This document shows positions 1,839 to 21,545 of a stretch of 23,121 nt of DNA, piece by piece; position 1 is the stretch's first letter; the number at the start of each line of letters is the position of its first letter. This DNA is from Bacteroidia bacterium. Its GTDB lineage: Bacteria; Bacteroidota; Bacteroidia; Bacteroidales; VadinHA17. The notes beneath the pieces were generated by a model, which was not told the origin of the DNA, ran no database searches, and saw only the letters and a program-made list of their open reading frames with translations. The DNA lies in assembly GCA_026391215.1 (NCBI GenBank), contig JAPLDX010000020.1:1-23121 (forward strand), given 5' to 3'. Position numbers and translations under genes: made by a program.

Positions 1839-1901
1839 TGTGTTATTTTTAGTTATTGTTTAACAACAGATGGGAAGAATGGTTGATTGAAATAAGGATT
1901 T

Positions 1902-1958
1902 TTCAGCATTTTAGCATTTTTTTCCTGTGGTTGCAATCAGAGCAAATCTTTCCACCAG
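1902..1958 (-). ncRNA. SAM-II class riboswitch aptamer (SAM-II / SAM-II long-loop type) in the metK leader
   Basis: Minus strand reads CUGGUGG-AAA-GAUUUG-CUCUG-AUUGC-AA-CCAC-AGG-A7-U-GCUAAAA. It shows a P1 helix (GUGG/CCAC) and the conserved SAM-II segments GAUUU, UUGC and GCUAAA, directly upstream of metK. Confidence 0.8.
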
Positions 1959-2004
1959 ATAATTAAGGCACAAAGCAAATAAAAATTTCCGTAAAATAAA
2001 AATA

Positions 2005-5337: not shown

Positions 5338-6795
5338 ATGTTAAATCAGAGGTTACAGCAGAAGTTGCTTCAGAAGCTTTCGCCGCAGCAGATCCAGATG
5401 ATCAAGCTGCTGGAGGTACCTACTCTGCAGATAGAACAAAGGATAAAAAAGGAACTCGAAGAGAATCCTGCCCTTGAGGAAGGAACTGAGGATGAAGAAG
5501 CATCTCCCGAAGAAACTGATGATGATCTTTATGAAGAGGACGACAAGGATCAGGATGAATTCACTCTGGATGATTATATGGAGGATGATGAGATCCCCGA
5601 TTATAAACTTCAGGCAAACAACTACAGCAAAGATGATGATAAGAAGTCCGAGATACCTTTTTCGGCCGGCTCATCATTCCATGAACACCTTGAAGCACAG
5701 CTTGGACTGAGGGAACTGACGGACAAGCAAAAGATTCTCAGTGAGTATATAATCGGTAACATTGACGAGGATGGCTATCTCAGAAGAGAACCGACAAATA
5801 TTGTCGACGATATGGCATTCCTGCAAAACGTACAAACTACCGAACATGAACTTGAGGAGGTTCTTAAAATAGTGCAGGATCTAGAGCCTGCAGGTGTAGG
5901 CGCAAGAACACTCAGGGAATGCCTTATGCTTCAGCTTGAAAGGAAAGATTTGTCCGATCCGGTATTAAAGTTAGTTTATTTAATTATAGATCAGCACTTT
6001 GAAGAATTTTCCAAAAGACACTATGATAAAATCATAACAAGACTTGGCATAAGCGAGGATGACCTGAAATCAGCGATCGAAGAGGTTCTTAGACTGAATC
6101 CCAAGCCGGGAGGCCTTTTCAGTGATCCATTTACAAAAACTGCACAGCCAATAATCCCTGACTTCATCCTTGAACATTCCGAAGATGGCTTTGACCTTCA
6201 CCTTAACTCCCGTAATCTGCCGGAGCTCAGGCTCAGCACTGCATACAGCGAAATGCTGCAGGAATATACCAGGGATAAAGCAAACAAAAAGGAGATGAAG
6301 GAAGCAATCCTGTTTGTGAAACAGAAAATCGACTCTGCAAAATGGTTCATTGATGCCATAAAGCAAAGACAGAATACACTTCTTCTTACTATGAATGCCA
6401 TCCTGGAATATCAGCAGGAATATTTCATTGATGGCGATGAGACAAAGCTGAAACCCATGATCCTTAAAGATGTTGCCGAGATGACAGGTCTTGATATTTC
6501 AACAGTTTCAAGAGTCGCTAACAGCAAATACATACAGACCCATTTCGGGATCTATCCTTTGAAATTCTTCTTCTCGGAAGGGTTACAGACCGACAGCGGA
6601 GAAGAAGTTTCAACACGGGAAATAAAAAGGATCCTTCAGGATTGCATTAATAATGAACAGAAACGGCGCCCGCTTACTGATGAAAGGCTGACCGAAATCC
6701 TACAGGAGAAAGGATACCAGATAGCACGCAGGACAGTTGCCAAATACCGGGAGCAGCTTAATATCCCGGTAGCCAGATTACGAAAGGAGATCTGA
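5338..6795 (+). CDS. rpoN: RNA polymerase sigma-54 factor
   Basis: Q/L-rich region I (QKLSPQQIQMIKLL), acidic region II, HTH 'DISTVSRV', RpoN box ARRTVAKYRE. Confidence 0.98.
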   Translation: MLNQRLQQKLLQKLSPQQIQMIKLLEVPTLQIEQRIKKELEENPALEEGTEDEEASPEETDDDLYEEDDKDQDEFTLDDYMEDDEIPDYKLQANNYSKDDDKKSEIPFSAGSSFHEHLEAQLGLRELTDKQKILSEYIIGNIDEDGYLRREPTNIVDDMAFLQNVQTTEHELEEVLKIVQDLEPAGVGARTLRECLMLQLERKDLSDPVLKLVYLIIDQHFEEFSKRHYDKIITRLGISEDDLKSAIEEVLRLNPKPGGLFSDPFTKTAQPIIPDFILEHSEDGFDLHLNSRNLPELRLSTAYSEMLQEYTRDKANKKEMKEAILFVKQKIDSAKWFIDAIKQRQNTLLLTMNAILEYQQEYFIDGDETKLKPMILKDVAEMTGLDISTVSRVANSKYIQTHFGIYPLKFFFSEGLQTDSGEEVSTREIKRILQDCINNEQKRRPLTDERLTEILQEKGYQIARRTVAKYREQLNIPVARLRKEI

Positions 6796-14017: not shown

Positions 14018-15007
14018 ATGGAGACTGTAGTCAGCGGCATAAGACCGACAGGGAACCTGCATCTGGGAAATTATTTCGGCGCATTAAGCAATTTCCTGAA
14101 AATGCAAAGGGAGAATAATTGCTTTTTCTTTATCGCTGATTATCATTCCCTTACAACACATCCTAAGATTGATGACATTCATGGGAATATCAGGCAGGTG
14201 CTGGCAGAATACCTTGCCTGCGGTATAGATCCTGAAATTGCAACAGTTTTCATACAGAGCGATGTGCCTGAAGTGACCGAGCTTTACCTGCTGCTTAATA
14301 TGAACGCATATATAGGCGAACTCGAAAGAACGACATCCTTCAAGGAAAAGGTCAGGAAACAACCTGACAATATAAATGCCGGATTATTGACATATCCTGT
14401 TTTGATGGCTGCTGATATTATCATTCATAAAGCAAATAAAGTGCCTGTCGGCAAGGACCAGGAGCAGCATCTGGAGATGACAAGACGTTTTGCAAGACGC
14501 TTTAATACAATGTATGATGTAGACTATTTCCCGGAGCCTGATGCATATAATTTCGGAAAGAAGCTAATCAAAATTCCGGGACTAGACGGTACCGGGAAAA
14601 TGGGAAAAAGTGAGGGCAACGGCATTTTCCTTGCCGATACACCGGATGAGATACGCAAAAAAGTTATGAGGGCAGTAACTGATACCGGGCCAAAAAGCCC
14701 CGGAGAAAAACCCTCCGAACCGGTTCAGAATCTTTTTACAATAATGAAGGTCGTTTCAGACCCTTCTACTGTTAAATATTTCACAGAAAAGCATGCATCC
14801 TGCGAGATCCGTTATGGTGATATGAAGAAACAGCTTGCTGAAGATATCATCAAGGTTACAGATCCAATTAGGATAAGGATCAACGAAATCCTTGCCGACA
14901 GGAAATACCTTGCCCGGGTTGTTAAGGACGGGGCTGAAAAAGCAAGGGCAAGCGCTTCAAAGACTATCGGGGAGGTACGTGAGATCATAGGATACAGGCC
15001 TTTCTGA
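14018..15007 (+). CDS. trpS: Tryptophan--tRNA ligase
   Basis: SGIRPTGNLHLGNY (HIGH), YPVLMAADI, VPVGKDQEQHLE and KMGKS (KMSKS) motifs. Confidence 0.97.
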   Translation: METVVSGIRPTGNLHLGNYFGALSNFLKMQRENNCFFFIADYHSLTTHPKIDDIHGNIRQVLAEYLACGIDPEIATVFIQSDVPEVTELYLLLNMNAYIGELERTTSFKEKVRKQPDNINAGLLTYPVLMAADIIIHKANKVPVGKDQEQHLEMTRRFARRFNTMYDVDYFPEPDAYNFGKKLIKIPGLDGTGKMGKSEGNGIFLADTPDEIRKKVMRAVTDTGPKSPGEKPSEPVQNLFTIMKVVSDPSTVKYFTEKHASCEIRYGDMKKQLAEDIIKVTDPIRIRINEILADRKYLARVVKDGAEKARASASKTIGEVREIIGYRPF

Positions 15008-15013
15008 TGCCTG

Positions 15014-15046
15014 AAAAATGAAAGCCAGGCTTTTTGGGGCCTGGCT
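15014..15046 (-). terminator. Rho-independent terminator (minus strand)
   Basis: AGCCAGGC-CCCAAAAA-GCCUGGCU 8-bp stem followed by UUCAUUUUU on the minus strand. There is no U-tract on the plus strand. Confidence 0.65.
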
Positions 15047-15084
15047 GAACTTGAAGGATCAAGTATATGTTGAGATTGCCTGTA
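15014..15084 (-). ncRNA. Candidate sigma54-dependent small RNA (about 70 nt)
   Basis: Bounded by a -24/-12 promoter and an intrinsic terminator on the same strand. Contains an internal hairpin ACUUGA-UCCU-UCAAGU. No credible ORF is present. Confidence 0.55.
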
Positions 15085-15094
15085 CAATCATAAT

Positions 15095-15111
15095 TTCAAA
15101 TTGCGTGCCAA
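15095..15111 (-). promoter_or_regulatory. Sigma54 (-24/-12) promoter
   Basis: Minus strand TTGGCACGCAATTTGAA versus consensus YTGGCACGNNNNTTGCW. GG at 15109-15108, exact 10-nt spacing, and one deviation (A for C at -12). Confidence 0.65.
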
Positions 15112-15124
15112 AATAGTTCCCGAT

Positions 15125-16711
15125 ATGAAAAATAAAAGTTCAAACTCCCGGAACAGCCATCAGCAGAAGGCTGTAAGAAATGTAACAAGACGCTGTTTTC
15201 TATCTTCATGCTCGGCATGTGCTGCATGCATGGCTTTTGCACCGGTCACTTTTCTCAGTTCCTGCGGCCGGTCATCGAAGGGGGCTCCGAAAATGAGAAT
15301 CAGGATCCTGTATTCGCTTCATGGACCCATACAAACACAGCCAGACTGGCCAAATGTGGGATTTGACTTTAATCCTGTTATGGAGAAGATTAATACAGCC
15401 CTGATAAACCATTTCCCTGATTTTGAATTTATCCCGACACTTGCTACCGGACCTGAAGATGCTGAAAAGATAGTCCAGAAGGATACACTGGAAAATATAG
15501 GTGGTTACCTGGTTTACCAGATGAACTGCTGGAACCAGGTTGTACAGACAATAGCTAAGACAGAGAAACCTGTTCTTTATGCTGATTTTCAGTTCGCAGG
15601 CAGCGGCGGCTTTCTTGTCTATACTGCCACATTTCTCAGCAATAATGCGGCTAATGTGGGTTTTGTCGCATCCTCGAGGATGGAGGATCTTCTTGCAGCT
15701 GTAGAATGTTTTAATATTGTGAAAAACGGAGGATCAGCTGCTGATTTCGTTAAAGCCACTGAAAAAGCACGCATTGCCTCAACTCCTTCCGCCAAAAAAT
15801 ATTCAGTAAATCCAAATGACATTAAAATACTTTCATCCGGTGAATGTGTCCGGCAGCTGGGCAACTCAAGAATAATAGCTGTAAGGGATCAAACGGCAAG
15901 CATTGCTGATCCGGTCATGGGAATTCCGGTGGAATACATTCCCTTCGCAGAAGTAAATGATGCATGGAGCAAGGCTGATAAGGAAGAGTCAGCCGGGATA
16001 GTCGGAATGTGGCAAAAATCAGCGCTGGAAATTGTTGATGTCTCTTATGAAACATTGCTGACTTCAGCTGCTATGTACCTGGGTATGAAAAAAGTGCTGA
16101 AAAATCATGGAGCCAATGCAATAACAATGAACTGTCTTGGCGGTTTTTACGGCGGTCATATTCATGCTTATCCCTGCCTTGGCTTTCATGAACTATGTAA
16201 CGAAGGGCTGGTAGGCGCCTGTGAATGTGATATAAATTCCACTGCAACAATGGTTGCATTCTCAACAATGACCGGAGGACGTCCTGGTTTTATTTCCGAT
16301 CCTGTTATTGATACCTCAAAGCGACAAATAATATATGCGCACTGTGTTGCTCCCAATAGGATATTCGGACCTGAAGGTAAAACAAATCCATTCAGGATCA
16401 TGACTCACTCGGAAGACAGGGCAGGAGCCTCCGTTCAATCGATCCTCCCTGTCAACTTCATGACGACTACTCTTGAAATCAACAATGACCGGAAAGAAAT
16501 ACTGATGCATCAGGCAGTTTCCCTGGATAATGATCCTGATGACCGGGCATGCAGGACCAAACTATGTGCCGAGCCCGTAGGAGATATTGAGAAGCTTTTC
16601 ACAATGTGGGACAAATGGGGCTGGCACAGGGTTACATTCTATGGCGACCTGAAAGATCCTGTTTATGCTTTAGCTGATGAAACAGGTTGGAAGGTGATTG
16701 AGGAGGCATGA
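15125..16711 (+). CDS. L-fucose/L-arabinose isomerase-like protein with twin-arginine (Tat) signal, possibly a lipoprotein
   Basis: VTRRCFL twin-Arg motif, followed by FLSS-C. The C-terminal half has YPCLGF, GACECD, GFISDP, YAHC and GWHRVTFYGD, matching the Glu/Asp/His metal-ligand pattern of the FucI/AraA fold. Start taken at ATG 15125. Confidence 0.72.
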   Translation: MKNKSSNSRNSHQQKAVRNVTRRCFLSSCSACAACMAFAPVTFLSSCGRSSKGAPKMRIRILYSLHGPIQTQPDWPNVGFDFNPVMEKINTALINHFPDFEFIPTLATGPEDAEKIVQKDTLENIGGYLVYQMNCWNQVVQTIAKTEKPVLYADFQFAGSGGFLVYTATFLSNNAANVGFVASSRMEDLLAAVECFNIVKNGGSAADFVKATEKARIASTPSAKKYSVNPNDIKILSSGECVRQLGNSRIIAVRDQTASIADPVMGIPVEYIPFAEVNDAWSKADKEESAGIVGMWQKSALEIVDVSYETLLTSAAMYLGMKKVLKNHGANAITMNCLGGFYGGHIHAYPCLGFHELCNEGLVGACECDINSTATMVAFSTMTGGRPGFISDPVIDTSKRQIIYAHCVAPNRIFGPEGKTNPFRIMTHSEDRAGASVQSILPVNFMTTTLEINNDRKEILMHQAVSLDNDPDDRACRTKLCAEPVGDIEKLFTMWDKWGWHRVTFYGDLKDPVYALADETGWKVIEEA

Positions 16712-19401
16712 TAGTGAGGAAGCGAGCGGCTATTATTTCTGTTATTCTACTTATTTCCGGTCTGGCAACCCTGGGATATTTCCTCTATGAAGGGCGAAAG
16801 ACTTTTTTTACCGATCCTTATAAGGCTGTTGCCCCCACAGCTTCATTTGTCATAGAAACTATTGACCTTCAAAGCTTTATTAATTCTCTTACAACAGGCA
16901 AGGGCTTGTTCGGTGAAGTCTCAAGAGTAAAGGAATTCGATATTTTCAACAAAAAAATGAAATTCCTGACCGATCAGCTGAATAATGCAGCATATAAAAA
17001 GCTGATAACCGGCGGTCCGGCAATCATTTCCTTCTATAAGCCAGAAACAGGCAAGCTTCAGCCTCTATTGACCATGGCTGTCCCGGCCGAGATCCGGATC
17101 AGACAGCTCAGGGTAATACTGCGGCAGGCAGGCGTAAAAACTATAGATGAAATGAGCGTTCAGGGCAATAGCATCCTGACGCTTCCGTTTACTATTGACA
17201 ACCAGAAGGGAACTGTTTTTATCTCAATTATATCAGGACTGCTTATCTGCAGTTCCTCTGAAGAGATTATGATAAACGCAATTGAACAAACCGGAAGGGA
17301 TAATGATATCAGAAATGTTCCTGGTTTTTCAAGAGTGCTTGAGGCATCCGGGAAAAATGAGGATAAGGTTTTTGTGGTTTTCAGCAATCTTCCGGGGTTG
17401 TTCAGGTCTGTCTTCAATGAAGAATATTCCTCAACAGCTCAGAAAATAGGATCCCTGGCAGGATGTGCTGAAGGAGACTTCTATCTTAATGACAACGGAC
17501 TGGTGCTTAGCGGGTATACTGAAAGTACAAAAACGACTGAAATACTGTATAAATATAAGGCAGGCAAGGTTGGTGTGTTCAGGACATATAAGATACTGCC
17601 GTCTTCCACGGTACTTTTTGAATCACTTTTTCTGAATGAAGAAAATTCTCCGGGAAAGAATGGTAACACTGTTTTTATAAAGGCCTCAGATCTGGCTTCC
17701 AAACTCCGTGAATATACCGGGGATGAGGTGACCAAGGCATACATCGATATTAAAGAAAGGCCTGCAAATGAGAATATTGTGATTATTTATGAGCTTAAAT
17801 ACCGTGCATATGCCGAGAAGATCTTTCTTGACGAATTTTCAAAGGAAACAGGAAAAACAAATATCCTTTATTTCCAGCCTGATGAACAGATAAAGATCCC
17901 GGTTTTTGTGACACCGTACAGAGGATTCTCAGAGGCAATGCTTCCTGGTTTCATAAAAGATTTCGATGATTCGTATTTCGCTTTTTATGATAATTTCCTG
18001 ATCACAGGCAGTTCATATATCACTGTTTCTAGGCTTTTATATGATAATCTGCTGAATAAAACCCTGGCAAACGACCTGATATACAGGGATTTTGAAAGCA
18101 CTCTTCCCACTGTTGCCGGATATTATTTCTATTGCGTCCCTGCACGCATTACAGATTACATTAAGGATTTCCTTAGTGAGGATCTGATGGAATTATTGCA
18201 GTCGAACAAAGCTTCACTTGAAAAGATCCAGGCAGCCGGATACCAGTTCACATCCAGCAACGATATGATGTACAACAGCTTATCTGTCCGTTTTAAAGAG
18301 GAAGCAAGAGAAGTATCAACAACTGAATGGGAGACATTGCTTGATACAGTCGCCGCTATTAAACCATTCTTTTTTACAAATCATACCACCGGTGCGAAGG
18401 AGATTTTCATTCAGGATCTGAAGAACAATGCATACCTTATAAACGCTGCAGGAAGAGTTCTCTGGAAAGTGCCTCTCAGGGAAAAGATAAGTGGTACGGT
18501 ATTTATAATAGATTATTTCGGGAACAGCAAATATCAGCTGCTTTTTTCCGGAACTAATTACCTTCACCTCCTTGACAGGAATGGCAATTACGTGGAAAGA
18601 TATCCAGTAAAGCTCAGGTCGCCTGCGACTAATTCCCTGGCCCTGTTTGACTATGATAACAACCTCAATTACAGGCTGCTGATAGCCGGTGAGGACAGGA
18701 TGATATATGCCTATGACAGGAGCGGCAGTGTTGTAAAAGGCTGGAATCCGTTCAGGACCAGCGGTACGGTGAATGCGGAAATCAGCTGGTGCCGGGTTTC
18801 CGGGAAAGACTACCTGGTTGTTTCCGATATTTCTTCAATTTATTTTCTAGACCGTGCAGGCAATGTCAGACTGCGTCTAAGTGAACCTGTGACTAAGGCC
18901 GGAAGATCATCATTAAGGTTATCTTCCGGGACCAGTCCTTCGCTGGTCTGCACATCCCCCGAAGGCACCATTCAGCATATATATTTTGACGGAAGCGTGA
19001 AAAAGTTCACTTTAAGGACGTTTTCGGTTGACCATGCATTTGATTTTTTTGACGTAGACGGGGATGGTTTTGGCGAATATATTTTTATTGATAAAGGTAT
19101 ATTGTATCTTTATGATCATAACAGAACCGAAATGTTCAGCAGGGAATTCGGCTCAGCGGCGCTCGGGGGTCCGATAAATTTTGTTTTTTCAGCTTCCGAC
19201 AGAAAAATCGGTGTTTTTGACATTAATAAAAACCTGATTTATCTGATTGACAAAAACGGAAAGACGATGAGCGGTTTTCCTTTAAAAGGGGCCTCGATGT
19301 TCTCAATCGGGAAGCTGTCGGAAAAAAGCGGCTGGCATCTCATTGTAGGCGGCACCGACAGGTTCCTGTACAATTACAGGTTGGATACGGAGAATAAATG
19401 A
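16708..19401 (+). CDS. Large membrane-anchored protein (DUF3352-like N-terminal part, C-terminal FG-GAP/PQQ-like beta-propeller)
   Basis: N-terminal TM anchor. Repeated motifs IDYFGNSKYQLLF, FDYDNNLNYRLLI and FDVDGDGFGEYIF, plus 'G..v.g(W/F/Y)P' blades. ATGA overlap with the upstream gene. Confidence 0.7.
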   Translation: MIVRKRAAIISVILLISGLATLGYFLYEGRKTFFTDPYKAVAPTASFVIETIDLQSFINSLTTGKGLFGEVSRVKEFDIFNKKMKFLTDQLNNAAYKKLITGGPAIISFYKPETGKLQPLLTMAVPAEIRIRQLRVILRQAGVKTIDEMSVQGNSILTLPFTIDNQKGTVFISIISGLLICSSSEEIMINAIEQTGRDNDIRNVPGFSRVLEASGKNEDKVFVVFSNLPGLFRSVFNEEYSSTAQKIGSLAGCAEGDFYLNDNGLVLSGYTESTKTTEILYKYKAGKVGVFRTYKILPSSTVLFESLFLNEENSPGKNGNTVFIKASDLASKLREYTGDEVTKAYIDIKERPANENIVIIYELKYRAYAEKIFLDEFSKETGKTNILYFQPDEQIKIPVFVTPYRGFSEAMLPGFIKDFDDSYFAFYDNFLITGSSYITVSRLLYDNLLNKTLANDLIYRDFESTLPTVAGYYFYCVPARITDYIKDFLSEDLMELLQSNKASLEKIQAAGYQFTSSNDMMYNSLSVRFKEEAREVSTTEWETLLDTVAAIKPFFFTNHTTGAKEIFIQDLKNNAYLINAAGRVLWKVPLREKISGTVFIIDYFGNSKYQLLFSGTNYLHLLDRNGNYVERYPVKLRSPATNSLALFDYDNNLNYRLLIAGEDRMIYAYDRSGSVVKGWNPFRTSGTVNAEISWCRVSGKDYLVVSDISSIYFLDRAGNVRLRLSEPVTKAGRSSLRLSSGTSPSLVCTSPEGTIQHIYFDGSVKKFTLRTFSVDHAFDFFDVDGDGFGEYIFIDKGILYLYDHNRTEMFSREFGSAALGGPINFVFSASDRKIGVFDINKNLIYLIDKNGKTMSGFPLKGASMFSIGKLSEKSGWHLIVGGTDRFLYNYRLDTENK

Positions 19402-19409
19402 TTCCGGGT

Positions 19410-21545
19410 ATGAAAAGAAAATTATCTGTTTTTATTTTAGCGGCGGCGCTTGTTGCCATAGCAGGATGTGTCAAGGAGACTTATGAGATAGATAAGTTTT
19501 CAAAACAAGCTCATCTGATGCCGGGTTTTGGCGTCTCTGTGTTACAGGGAAACATCACCCTCAGCGATTTTGTTGAACCAAACGACACAATAGTTTTTGA
19601 CTCAGATACTGTATTTATTTATGATGACAATGTTGTCAGCTTTGTCTTCAGAAAAGATTCCATTATCAATTTCAGGCTTGAAGATTATTATGACATCAAT
19701 GATATGTTATCGCACAGCGATTCCTTTGAGGTTGGTGAGTTAAGCCTTGATCCCTTCCAGAGTAAGATAAGCTATACTCTCAGACAAATTGTTGATTTCT
19801 TCTCTCCTGCAGTAAGAGCACAGTTTGTCGTTCTTGACGGGGCCACAGCAAATTTCCCATCCTTTCCTCCTACCAGTCTTGGCGAAATAACTTATACAGC
19901 ATTTAATAATTTTAAGTATGCCACCTTCTCGGAGGGCTCCCTTGAAATTTCTGTTAAAAATAATCTTCCTGCGGCACTACAGGGATTAAGCATACGACTT
20001 TTCAATTCTTCAGATCATTCACAGGTTGGCGACGAGATGATAATTTCCACTATTAATTCCGGACAAACCGGAACAGGAAGTATAAATCTGGCAAATCTGA
20101 CGGTGACAAATCAGCTTATTGCCGCCATTGTGCTTTCCGGCAGTCCGGGCACTTCATCACCCGTGAATATTGACCTTGATGATAACAATATAGAGGTCAC
20201 TGTTGCAGGAAAAGACCTGATCGTCAGATCCGGCATGGTCGTTTTGCCTGTCCAGGATATTTTATCTCTTGACGAGGATGACACAGTTTCCATTGATCCC
20301 GGCAATGATATTGAAATAAGCCTTATTAAAATACTTACAGGCGACCTTATTTACGATGTAAATGCAATGTCTCCGGTAACAGCTTCATTATCTATAACTC
20401 TGCCTGCATCTGAGCGTAACAGCGCGCCAATCTCTGAAAGCATAACTGTTTATCCGGACTCTGCTATCTCCGGGAAAATTCCACTTTCTAATTCAACCAT
20501 TGACCTTGGAACCGTGACTTCAAAGCCGTACAATATGCTTCCAATTCATTATAGCGTTGATGTAAGCTCAAATGGCGAAATGGTTGACTTCAACAGTACT
20601 GATCAGGTTATTCTTGATCTGAAGCTGATCGATCCTGAGATTGATTATGTAAAAGGCTATTTCGGGCAGTATGGCGATACAATTGATACTGATACCCTTG
20701 ACCTGGGAATAGAAGATATCCTTAAAGATGTATCGGGCAGTTTCCTGGTCTCAAGCCCGTCAGTCAGGCTTAACTATTCCAACTCATTTGCCATTCCCGT
20801 TGAAATAGACCTGAACGTTGTGGGATACAGGTCGGATGACAGTGTTGATCTTGATCTTGATCCTATAACGCTCAACTCTCCTGCTGCTCCGTCTGAACGT
20901 ATTAAAAATGGCATCCTTACTGTTGACAAAAATAATTCACAGCTTCCGGAGATCATTTCACTTCCTCCTGAAAAGATACTTTTTGGAGGTTCTGCTGTTG
21001 TGAATCCTGATGGCAATACAGGCACCAGGGATAACTATATTTTCGGCGACAGCCGTTTTCTAGGAGATCTTGAAGTAGAGGTCCCTCTCGAGTTCAGGCT
21101 TAATAACCTTCATTTTGCGGATACTCTGGACAATCCGGTACAGGATGAAGATTTCAGCGACAGCCCGATTAATCCTGAAGATATTGAAACCCTTAAAATA
21201 CTTATGGATATAGAGAACGGTTTCCCGCTTGGCATATCCCTGAGTGTGAGCCTGTATGATTCGACGACACACTCCATAAAAAGCACAGTCAATGCGGCTG
21301 ATATCCTTGCACCTGCAACTGTTGACGCCAACGGACGCGTCACAACACCTGCTCAATGCTCAACCGAAATTGCGCTGACAAAGGATTTCTGGAATTGGAT
21401 AAATGATACGGATAAGATCATTATCGGTATCACTCTTGTTACTACCGACGGAGGAACTAAAGATGTTAAGATATATTCGGATTACTACCTGGATTATAAA
21501 GCAGCTCTTTTCGTAAAACCGGATATCAAATTTAGTTTTGAATGA
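19410..21545 (+). CDS. Lipoprotein with repeated beta-sandwich-like modules, function unknown
   Basis: MKRKLSVFILAAALVAIAG-C lipobox; acidic, beta-rich sequence. Alternative start ATG 19398 overlaps the upstream stop. Confidence 0.75.
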   Translation: MKRKLSVFILAAALVAIAGCVKETYEIDKFSKQAHLMPGFGVSVLQGNITLSDFVEPNDTIVFDSDTVFIYDDNVVSFVFRKDSIINFRLEDYYDINDMLSHSDSFEVGELSLDPFQSKISYTLRQIVDFFSPAVRAQFVVLDGATANFPSFPPTSLGEITYTAFNNFKYATFSEGSLEISVKNNLPAALQGLSIRLFNSSDHSQVGDEMIISTINSGQTGTGSINLANLTVTNQLIAAIVLSGSPGTSSPVNIDLDDNNIEVTVAGKDLIVRSGMVVLPVQDILSLDEDDTVSIDPGNDIEISLIKILTGDLIYDVNAMSPVTASLSITLPASERNSAPISESITVYPDSAISGKIPLSNSTIDLGTVTSKPYNMLPIHYSVDVSSNGEMVDFNSTDQVILDLKLIDPEIDYVKGYFGQYGDTIDTDTLDLGIEDILKDVSGSFLVSSPSVRLNYSNSFAIPVEIDLNVVGYRSDDSVDLDLDPITLNSPAAPSERIKNGILTVDKNNSQLPEIISLPPEKILFGGSAVVNPDGNTGTRDNYIFGDSRFLGDLEVEVPLEFRLNNLHFADTLDNPVQDEDFSDSPINPEDIETLKILMDIENGFPLGISLSVSLYDSTTHSIKSTVNAADILAPATVDANGRVTTPAQCSTEIALTKDFWNWINDTDKIIIGITLVTTDGGTKDVKIYSDYYLDYKAALFVKPDIKFSFE

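Follow-up and report, generated by a model that had tools for sequence, protein, structure and literature searches.

The 23,121 nucleotides of contig JAPLDX010000020.1 (assembly GCA_026391215.1; Bacteroidia bacterium, Bacteroidales, VadinHA17), referred to below as the window, carry on their minus strand, between the tryptophanyl-tRNA synthetase gene trpS and a divergently oriented gene, what is almost certainly, judged by comparison with homologous loci, a real and conserved non-coding RNA gene. The elements in front of it indicate that this gene is quite probably read by sigma-54 (RpoN). Taken as a whole, the locus is best explained, as we think likely, by an independent, sigma-54-driven gene for a non-coding RNA of ~70 nt, which has its own terminator and the anatomy of a seed-type small RNA (sRNA) acting in trans. 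Promoter, variable spacer, unpaired 5′ stretch, hairpin and terminator can be read in series between positions 15014 and 15112:

15014-15085 (minus): predicted sRNA, ~70 nt, found with covariance model R1 (see below) at 85.3 bits; the inferred start is at 15085-15083 and the inferred 3′ end lies in the U-tract
15096-15112 (minus): sigma-54-type promoter recognised from the sequence and its homologues, composed of TTTGGCAC (-24 box), a 4-nt spacer and TTTGA (-12 box)
15086-15095 (minus): variable spacer from the -12 box to the transcription start, with no conserved column in a 20-genome alignment
15064-15085 (minus): 5′ stretch GUACAGGCAAUCUCAACAUAUA, unpaired in both the minimum free energy and the centroid fold
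15049-15064 (minus): hairpin 1, ACUUGA/UCCU/UCAAGU, with compensatory changes at all 5 modelled pairs and 96% of cells paired
15014-15046 (minus): intrinsic terminator with the stem AGCCAGGC/GCCUGGCU (15046-15023) and the U-tract UUCAUUUUU (15022-15014), with compensatory changes at 6 of 8 pairs

The promoter was assessed against the sigma-54 reference consensus TGGCAC-N5-TTGC, in which the GG occupies -24 and a G occupies -13. TGGCAC is found on the minus strand at 15110-15105 as part of the extended box TTTGGCAC (15112-15105), followed by TTTGA at 15100-15096. The distance from GG (15109-15108) to G (15097) is precisely that of -24/-12 promoters and places the predicted +1 at ~15084/15083, in agreement with a preliminary description of this DNA, which had read a sigma-54 promoter of exact spacing here and a start near 15084. 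The -24 GG and the -13 G are present at this spacing both in the window and in 108 homologues. The same description called the promoter near-consensus; this holds for the -24 box and the spacing, while the -12 element is TTGA rather than TTGC.

The predicted 73-nt RNA folds at -20.6 kcal/mol (z = -3.79), an energy reached by none of 200 shuffled sequences, and the fold agrees with the transcript architecture drawn earlier. A consensus terminator scan called the terminator hairpin on the minus strand alone, and the U-tract is likewise confined to that strand, as had been claimed. The only open reading frame (ORF) 3′ of the promoter on the minus strand is a frame antisense to trpS, which upholds the statement that no protein gene lies downstream. 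The element thereby combines a promoter of its own, a Rho-independent terminator and the absence of an ORF with a conserved unpaired 5′ end. Its first 22 nt are unpaired in the fold, and ACAGGCAAUCU at the extreme 5′ end is nearly invariant in the family (16 genera; seen as invariant columns and in an alignment of 67 matches), which makes it the candidate seed. An unpaired 5′ seed had indeed been proposed; the most conserved part lies slightly upstream of the segment that was named for it. When the element was compared with Rfam 15, no family reached its gathering threshold (the best, Hrs12, scores 22.1 bits where 70 are required; E = 0.24), and in the entire window only SAM-II does so.

A BLAST search with a 131-nt query spanning the intergenic gap gave matches in 19 of 24 congeneric genomes (E ≤ 2e-8), covering query positions 15-114 and hence nearly the extent first proposed for the element; the same query gave none in 16 genomes of other families. 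In a MAFFT alignment of 20 loci nothing aligns 5′ of TTTGGCA, and GGCA and TTTG are invariant. The 12-14 nt after TTTG vary freely (ten bases in the window, 15086-15095), after which the sequence is nearly invariant from ACACAGG to the hairpin loops. The U-tract is the limit of conservation of the RNA; beyond it the alignment enters the 3′ end of trpS, in reverse complement. The block pattern is that left by a promoter followed by a start site and a transcript.

Covariation supports both helices. When 61 distinct sequences were aligned to the model, 97.7% of the cells were paired, and 11 of 13 pairs had changes on both sides; none of 500 shuffled controls matched any of the five measures used, and slid registers collapse. 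Such an alignment is biased toward the structure of its own model, and RNAalifold run on the plain MAFFT alignment gives the same two helices. The covariation and the conservation of promoter and hairpins in relatives, both named beforehand as checks, were thus observed. G:U cells, which pair in a minus-strand RNA only, outnumber A:C cells, which would pair in a plus-strand RNA only, by 47 to 11 (the count omits an 18-bit second copy at locus L054), and the minus strand is favoured for this reason. A conserved reading frame is excluded because indels of 1-3 nt occur in the 5′ stretch and in the loops.

The covariance model R1 was built from the transcript only (70 positions, 13 pairs), with the promoter columns excluded, and a second model, R2, from 67 matches. 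Because the models held no promoter columns, the presence of a promoter motif upstream of their matches is a fair independent test. TGGCA[CT]-N4-[AT]TTG was found upstream of 108 of the 109 distinct matches (from 137 matches in two alignments), and in 99 of the promoter-bearing ones the G of TTG stands 12-14 nt 5′ of model position 1. The single match without the motif, at 17.6 bits on an Anaerolineaceae contig, was dismissed as a chance match. The homologue consensus reads TTTGGCAC-(G/A)(C/T/G)(A/T)(A/T)-TTTG-(A/T/C), in which GGCA and TTG are invariant and the spacing from GG to the -12 G is constant over all 108 sequences. In the genome itself (3.39 Mb, 135 contigs; both strands), TGGCA[CT]-N5-TTG occurs at 80 sites, only two of which are followed by a strong terminator 35-185 nt downstream; among random positions, 13 of 2000 passed the same terminator test. 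Chance is excluded by this rarity and, with greater weight, by conservation. One of the two sites is the gene described here and the other, on contig C133, is also conserved, so the genome-wide scan suggested in the preliminary description found exactly one further unit. The conservation in blocks, the promoter at 108 of 109 matches, the covarying stems and the G:U excess support the unannotated gene for an sRNA of about 70 nt, with a promoter and terminator of its own, that was postulated there.

Within the genus, R1 detects the RNA in 138 of 151 genomes, including 91 of the 95 that are at least 90% complete, and in single copy in all but two. In a sample of the family it is present in 101 of 151 genomes and 16 of 20 genera, and a search of ~148 other families of the order, each represented by a single genome, returned three weak matches. 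With R2 the order-level count rose to 8 genomes of 150 (E ≤ 0.05). Eight new weak places were obtained with it at this level; the five with features of the RNA have the promoter, and the three without a promoter are bare terminators. Promoter-validated homologues thus occur in six other Bacteroidales families, some in 2-3 copies and away from trpS. In these distant homologues the first part of the 5′ stretch has changed as a block, CAGTTCTTCC for CAGGCAATCT, and AUAUAC, hairpin 1 and GCAAGCC are kept. Tandem copies of the sRNA gene, ~80-150 nt apart, were noticed in two other Bacteroidales families (L054:481-701 in genome G325; L291/L297, G034:C49:15987-16221), and each of these copies has a separate promoter of the sigma-54 type and a 5′ stretch that has diverged. 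When a public set of species representatives was scanned with a sequence pattern, at least 119 stretches came back; among the matches listed, R1 confirms 69 of 80 loci. The 11 unconfirmed loci belong to other phyla or to other Bacteroidota orders, and their number is compatible with the ~20 chance matches estimated for the pattern. The confirmed records among the matches listed are titled as uncultured Bacteroidales, ‘Rikenellaceae’ or Bacteroidota metagenome-assembled genomes (MAGs), with no cultured isolate; titles of sRNA-bearing MAGs name soil, fen, sediment and digester as sources.

The neighbours of the sRNA gene in the window, and the gene of the sigma factor, are the following:

14018-15007 (plus): trpS, tryptophanyl-tRNA synthetase, convergent with the sRNA gene (PF00579, 219 bits)
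15125-16711 (plus): divergent gene encoding 528 aa, with a twin-arginine-like N-terminus and a weak, sub-threshold match to the L-arabinose isomerase central domain (AraA_central)
5338-6795 (plus): rpoN (sigma-54), 8.2 kb away, with the domains Sigma54_AID, CBD and DBD

The trpS stop codon (15005-15007) is 6 nt from the end of the U-tract of the sRNA, whose gene entirely occupies the 117-nt gap between trpS and the next gene on the plus strand. Of 106 loci that could be assessed, 95 have a convergent trpS, whose stop codon lies a median of 3 nt from the U-tract; at the other 11, trpS is absent within 700 nt, and the promoter, the 5′ stretch and the hairpins are retained. The upstream neighbour is variable, being mostly a divergent gene for a small membrane protein and sometimes the end of a TonB-receptor-like gene. 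It had been proposed that the promoter overlaps the leader of the divergent gene at 15125 and that the two could interfere. The geometry is valid here, the ATG at 15125 being 15 nt from the -24 box, but this type of gene was found at only two of the upstream flanks listed, those of this genome and one close relative. Interference with it is not a conserved feature, because the upstream neighbour differs at nearly all other loci. The region 15125-21545 (plus) contains three consecutive large genes (528, 897 and 715 aa) without a Pfam family at gathering level, followed by a gene for a DUF5723 protein. The SAM-II (long-loop) riboswitch at 1901-1961 (minus, 54.5 bits) lies directly 5′ of the S-adenosylmethionine synthetase gene metK (495-1838, minus).

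The apparatus for sigma-54-dependent transcription is present. As the preliminary description stated, rpoN is encoded in the window, with all three sigma-54 domains, and six enhancer-binding proteins (PF00158) score above 200 bits in the genome. rpoN is also found 7-9 kb from the sRNA gene in several genera (e.g. G062:C1, G135:C3, G218:C1, G271:C1, G004:C1), a proximity for which conserved synteny of housekeeping genes is the simplest explanation. Canonical sites, TGGCA[CT]-N5-TTGC, are located 43-93 nt 5′ of dnaK, htpG, lon, thioredoxin and rsfS genes and also 5′ of a sufE-like gene, and groES is preceded by TGGCAT-N5-ATGC. Because such sites precede dnaK, htpG, lon, groES and others, sigma-54 looks like the heat-shock and protein-quality-control sigma factor of this organism. 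The promoters of chaperone and other genes recorded were C36:14361 (minus), C134:40410 (plus), C40:11152 (minus), C36:7602 (plus), C40:5580 (minus) and C75:30542 (plus), along with L228:7250-7266. In Flavobacterium psychrophilum, the sigma-54 motif SM4 comprises -24/-12 promoters before groES-groEL, lon, dnaK, grpE-dnaJ and htpG and was confirmed by mutagenesis at one operon (PMC9723704). Membership of the RNA described here in a heat-shock or envelope-stress regulon can be entertained tentatively at best.

Four of the six activators are paralogues that form a group specific to the lineage, and a 100%-complete genome from a different genus with the RNA yielded no member of it. Two activator types are common to all genomes tested. 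The one, a receiver-AAA+-lid protein without a Fis-type helix-turn-helix (HTH) domain (C109:16670-17845, minus; L204), is encoded in a row with grpE-like, dnaJ and ABC (ATP-binding cassette) transporter genes, downstream of dnaJ and the transporter, and has orthologues of 76-80% identity in five genomes of three genera. The other, an AAA+-HTH protein on contig C133, is encoded upstream of lptE, secG, groES and groEL. Co-occurrence cannot decide between them, because both are also present in the genus that lacks the RNA (see below).

The second orphan promoter-to-terminator unit, at about 19134-19254 (plus) of contig C133 (L203:1135-1255), lies between two minus-strand ORFs. Its elements, at 19145-19250, are TTTGGCAT-GAAA-TTTGA, a spacer that varies, a G/U-rich RNA whose sequence is invariant (AGAGGUUUUUUUCAUAGGUUAGGUUAGUUUUAGGGUUA) and a terminator with strong covariation; its predicted RNA is ~80 nt long, and its promoter core is almost identical to that of the trpS-side unit. 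It was found in 24 of 24 congeners and in none of 16 genomes of other families, and the promoter is kept at 14 of 15 aligned loci. A conserved TATATTTG ~10 nt 5′ of its -24 box may represent an additional housekeeping promoter. Pairing between the two sibling RNAs was considered and rejected, as the predicted energy of -5.9 kcal/mol is worse than that of 89% of shuffles. A second conserved unit fits the RpoN-controlled RNA layer envisaged in the preliminary description.

A bolder proposal, which we regard as speculative and rather doubtful, is that a sigma-54 stress response has a non-coding arm for repression, made up of this RNA and its C133 sibling. Their promoters, TTTGGCAC-N4-TTTGA with no C at -12, would then be a class of their own, fired enhancer-free by the response-regulator activator of the dnaJ operon that lacks a DNA-binding domain. 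If true, a circuit like that of sigma-E with MicA and RybB would have been rebuilt on sigma-54 in a phylum without Hfq.

According to the explanation preferred here, RNA polymerase with sigma-54 would transcribe from TTTGGCAC-N4-TTTGA after activation by an AAA+ enhancer-binding protein, the transcript would end at its intrinsic terminator a few bases short of the convergent trpS stop codon, and the unpaired, near-invariant 5′ end (ACAGGCAAUCU...AUAUA) would serve as a seed for base-pairing in trans. A number of observations count against it. The GC dinucleotide of the -12 box is missing in the window, and among the 108 homologues the position of the C is taken by A in 59, T in 33, C in 15 and G in one, while the chaperone-gene promoters of the same genome do have GC. 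There is no activator gene near the sRNA gene, since no PF00158 protein is encoded in the window and all six lie on other contigs, and no conserved activator site was seen in the 260 nt 5′ of 107 distinct loci beyond the signal of flanking genes. Presence of the RNA does not track rpoN, because one well-sampled genus of the family has the RNA in none of 39 genomes (R1) and rpoN in all 39. Targets were sought in the genome itself by a k-mer-seeded duplex scan, where the best trans site (-26.1 kcal/mol) fell within the range of five shuffled seeds (-21.1 to -26.8), and in 2429 crude translation-start regions, where the best site (-22.8) did not beat that of ten shuffles (-16.3 to -22.9); the 20th best there was -16.1 against -12.9 to -16.3. 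The target prediction recommended in the preliminary description thus yielded no site beyond shuffled controls. Lastly, the close and frequent convergence with trpS leaves room for a role in cis.

An enhancer site may not be required, as one of the two family-wide activators has no DNA-binding domain, and an activator of this kind would explain why no conserved upstream site is seen. With regard to the genus lacking the RNA, a joint loss of rpoN and RNA was ruled out by the retention of rpoN, which also means that the RNA is dispensable for sigma-54 function as such. In the two genomes of this genus that were inspected, trpS meets the neighbouring gene with ~10 nt in between (L225:8040-8420, L226:7800-8170), and no sigma-54-like motif was found in 17 kb at the syntenic place in either. 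The junction has the look of a clean deletion, or of a site into which the gene was never inserted. By eye, the C-terminal coding sequence of the neighbour resembles the DNA found 5′ of the RNA gene at some other loci.

The close fit to trpS could also mean that the RNA is real and its role local, as a sigma-54-triggered convergent or antisense unit that controls trpS, or read-through from it into the next gene; colliding polymerases, pairing with the 3′ untranslated region of trpS or use of the hairpin as a trpS terminator could be the means. We consider this unlikely, although the abutment at 95 of 106 loci, with a median of 3 nt, is so tight that any trpS mRNA must enter the sRNA gene and be fully complementary to the RNA. 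Read-through of trpS is plausible because the hairpin has no U-tract in the trpS direction, and the whole 117-nt gap downstream of trpS is taken up by the sRNA gene. On the other hand, the 11 loci without trpS in 700 nt keep promoter, 5′ stretch and hairpins, and distant homologues exist in 2-3 copies per genome away from trpS. The 5′ stretch is much more conserved than the hairpin loops, which would not be expected of a mere roadblock, and the strong covarying terminator speaks against long antisense transcripts. The translation start of trpS shows no complementarity to the seed either, with a mean of -8.7 kcal/mol as compared with -9.5 for shuffled seeds over 88 loci. A conserved DNA element that is not transcribed, for instance a protein-binding site combined with the trpS terminator, is hardly credible in view of the compensatory changes in both stems, the G:U to A:C ratio of 47 to 11, the U-tract on one strand and the layout of promoter, spacer and transcript.

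It is rather improbable that the RNA is real and its promoter not one of sigma-54, TTTGGCAC-N4-TTTG being used instead by the housekeeping sigma factor of Bacteroidota, by an extracytoplasmic function (ECF) sigma factor or by a DNA-binding regulator. Of the 108 homologues, 93 have no C at -12, and the two TTTG motifs recall the boxes of sigma-A, for which the consensus -33 TTTG / -7 TAnnTTTG is quoted in PMC9723704. At the C133 sibling at least, the conserved TATATTTG would allow a sigma-A promoter in addition. The TTTG boxes of such promoters are expected roughly 19-21 nt apart; the two found here are 4 nt apart, the TA of a would-be -7 box is T in one and A in six of 108 sequences, and the start would land in the unconserved spacer. 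The invariant GGCA and the fixed distance from GG to G in 108 sequences are a hallmark of sigma-54, and for the trpS-side RNA nothing is conserved 5′ of the -24 box. Also to be weighed is a sigma-54-driven RNA that binds or titrates a protein instead of pairing with mRNAs, to which we assign a low probability. Target complementarity never beats shuffled seeds, and the terminator stem GCAGCCAGG/CCUGGC as well as AUAUAC before hairpin 1 are conserved beyond the need of folding and kept where the 5′ stretch has changed. Against protein binding stand the lack of repeated binding motifs in a single RNA of 70 nt, the position of the most conserved unpaired part at the extreme 5′ end, as in known seed-type sRNAs, and the block change of CAGTTCTTCC for CAGGCAATCT, as expected with co-evolution of targets.

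For the preferred reading, a sigma-54-driven sRNA with its own terminator, action in trans by base-pairing is the mode we moderately favour: some copies are unlinked to trpS, the terminator is strong, and in distant homologues the 5′ stretch has changed as a block. Two candidate targets were discarded, namely a site next to the start codon of a gene of 243 aa on contig C29, which is present in none of 40 congeners, and a panB-like start region, at which complementarity is seen in one of 29 orthologues. A third candidate lies at the start of a gene for a membrane protein, within a PadR operon (C77:38107); here energies of -15 kcal/mol or below are reached by only 6 of 27 orthologues. AUGCCUGA is conserved at this place but also encodes Met-Pro-Glu, and the lead is weak for that reason.

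Small-RNA biology in Bacteroidota is young and based on a few gut isolates; here a candidate regulator with a clean layout from promoter to terminator was defined by comparative genomics alone, and its predicted RNA persists in hundreds of species from a Bacteroidales family that is uncultured and widespread in the environment. It would link sRNAs to sigma-54 in this phylum and, together with the C133 unit, suggests a non-coding output of a sigma factor that also fronts chaperone genes. The 108 functional-looking sigma-54 sites, mostly with A or T for the canonical -12 C, moreover constitute a natural series that bears on how the fork-junction contact at -12 tunes activator dependence. In the open literature, searched as full text and judged by titles and abstracts, no sigma-54-dependent sRNA in Bacteroidota was found.

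Among known systems, the Bacteroides sRNAs GibS, MasB and the DonS family are small trans- or cis-acting RNAs with intrinsic terminators, unpaired seeds and sigma-A promoters. Small size, terminator and unpaired seed are shared with the present RNA, which in contrast has a sigma-54-type promoter and no Rfam match; it has matches in only a few families of mostly uncultured Bacteroidales, as judged by the order-level model searches. We know of no Hfq-dependent paradigm in Bacteroidota. In enterobacteria, the sigma-E-dependent sRNAs MicA, RybB and MicL provide a repressing arm for an alternative sigma factor that can itself only activate. The RNA described here would have the same logical role if it were part of the sigma-54 chaperone regulon, though with a different sigma factor and promoter type, and with a -12 box unlike that of the chaperone promoters. 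In the SM4 regulon of Flavobacterium psychrophilum, the genes listed in the text available are protein-coding only, with no sRNA tied to the motif (PMC9723704), and the same genes carry sigma-54 sites here.

GlmY/GlmZ (response-regulator-type activator GlrR) of Proteobacteria are stand-alone sRNA genes with sigma-54-dependent promoters, at least with regard to this organisation the counterparts of the present gene. The same is true of CrcZ/CrcY, which are controlled by the response-regulator-type activator CbrB, also in Proteobacteria (PMC8871633). All of these RNAs differ from ours in being longer, in acting largely by protein sequestration or as decoys, in being unrelated in sequence and in belonging to another phylum. 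There is a likeness with the Qrr sRNAs of Vibrio as well: both are short, have a sigma-54-type promoter, an intrinsic terminator and a conserved unpaired pairing region, and occur with siblings under one promoter type. The link between LuxO, sigma-54 and sRNAs is described in PMC4878744 and PMC11407668. Unlike Qrr, the RNA in the window matches no Rfam family (Qrr included), has neither an adjacent activator gene nor a conserved upstream site, and has a -12 box that is mostly TTGA or TTGT. Three traits accordingly set it apart: a non-consensus -12 box kept over about a hundred species, no activator gene next to it or visible enhancer, and a fixed position against the trpS stop codon. The sigma-54-dependent sRNA is an established kind, exemplified by Qrr/LuxO, CrcZ/CbrB and GlmY/GlmZ; what is new is this RNA, in a phylum for which the literature search gave no earlier case.

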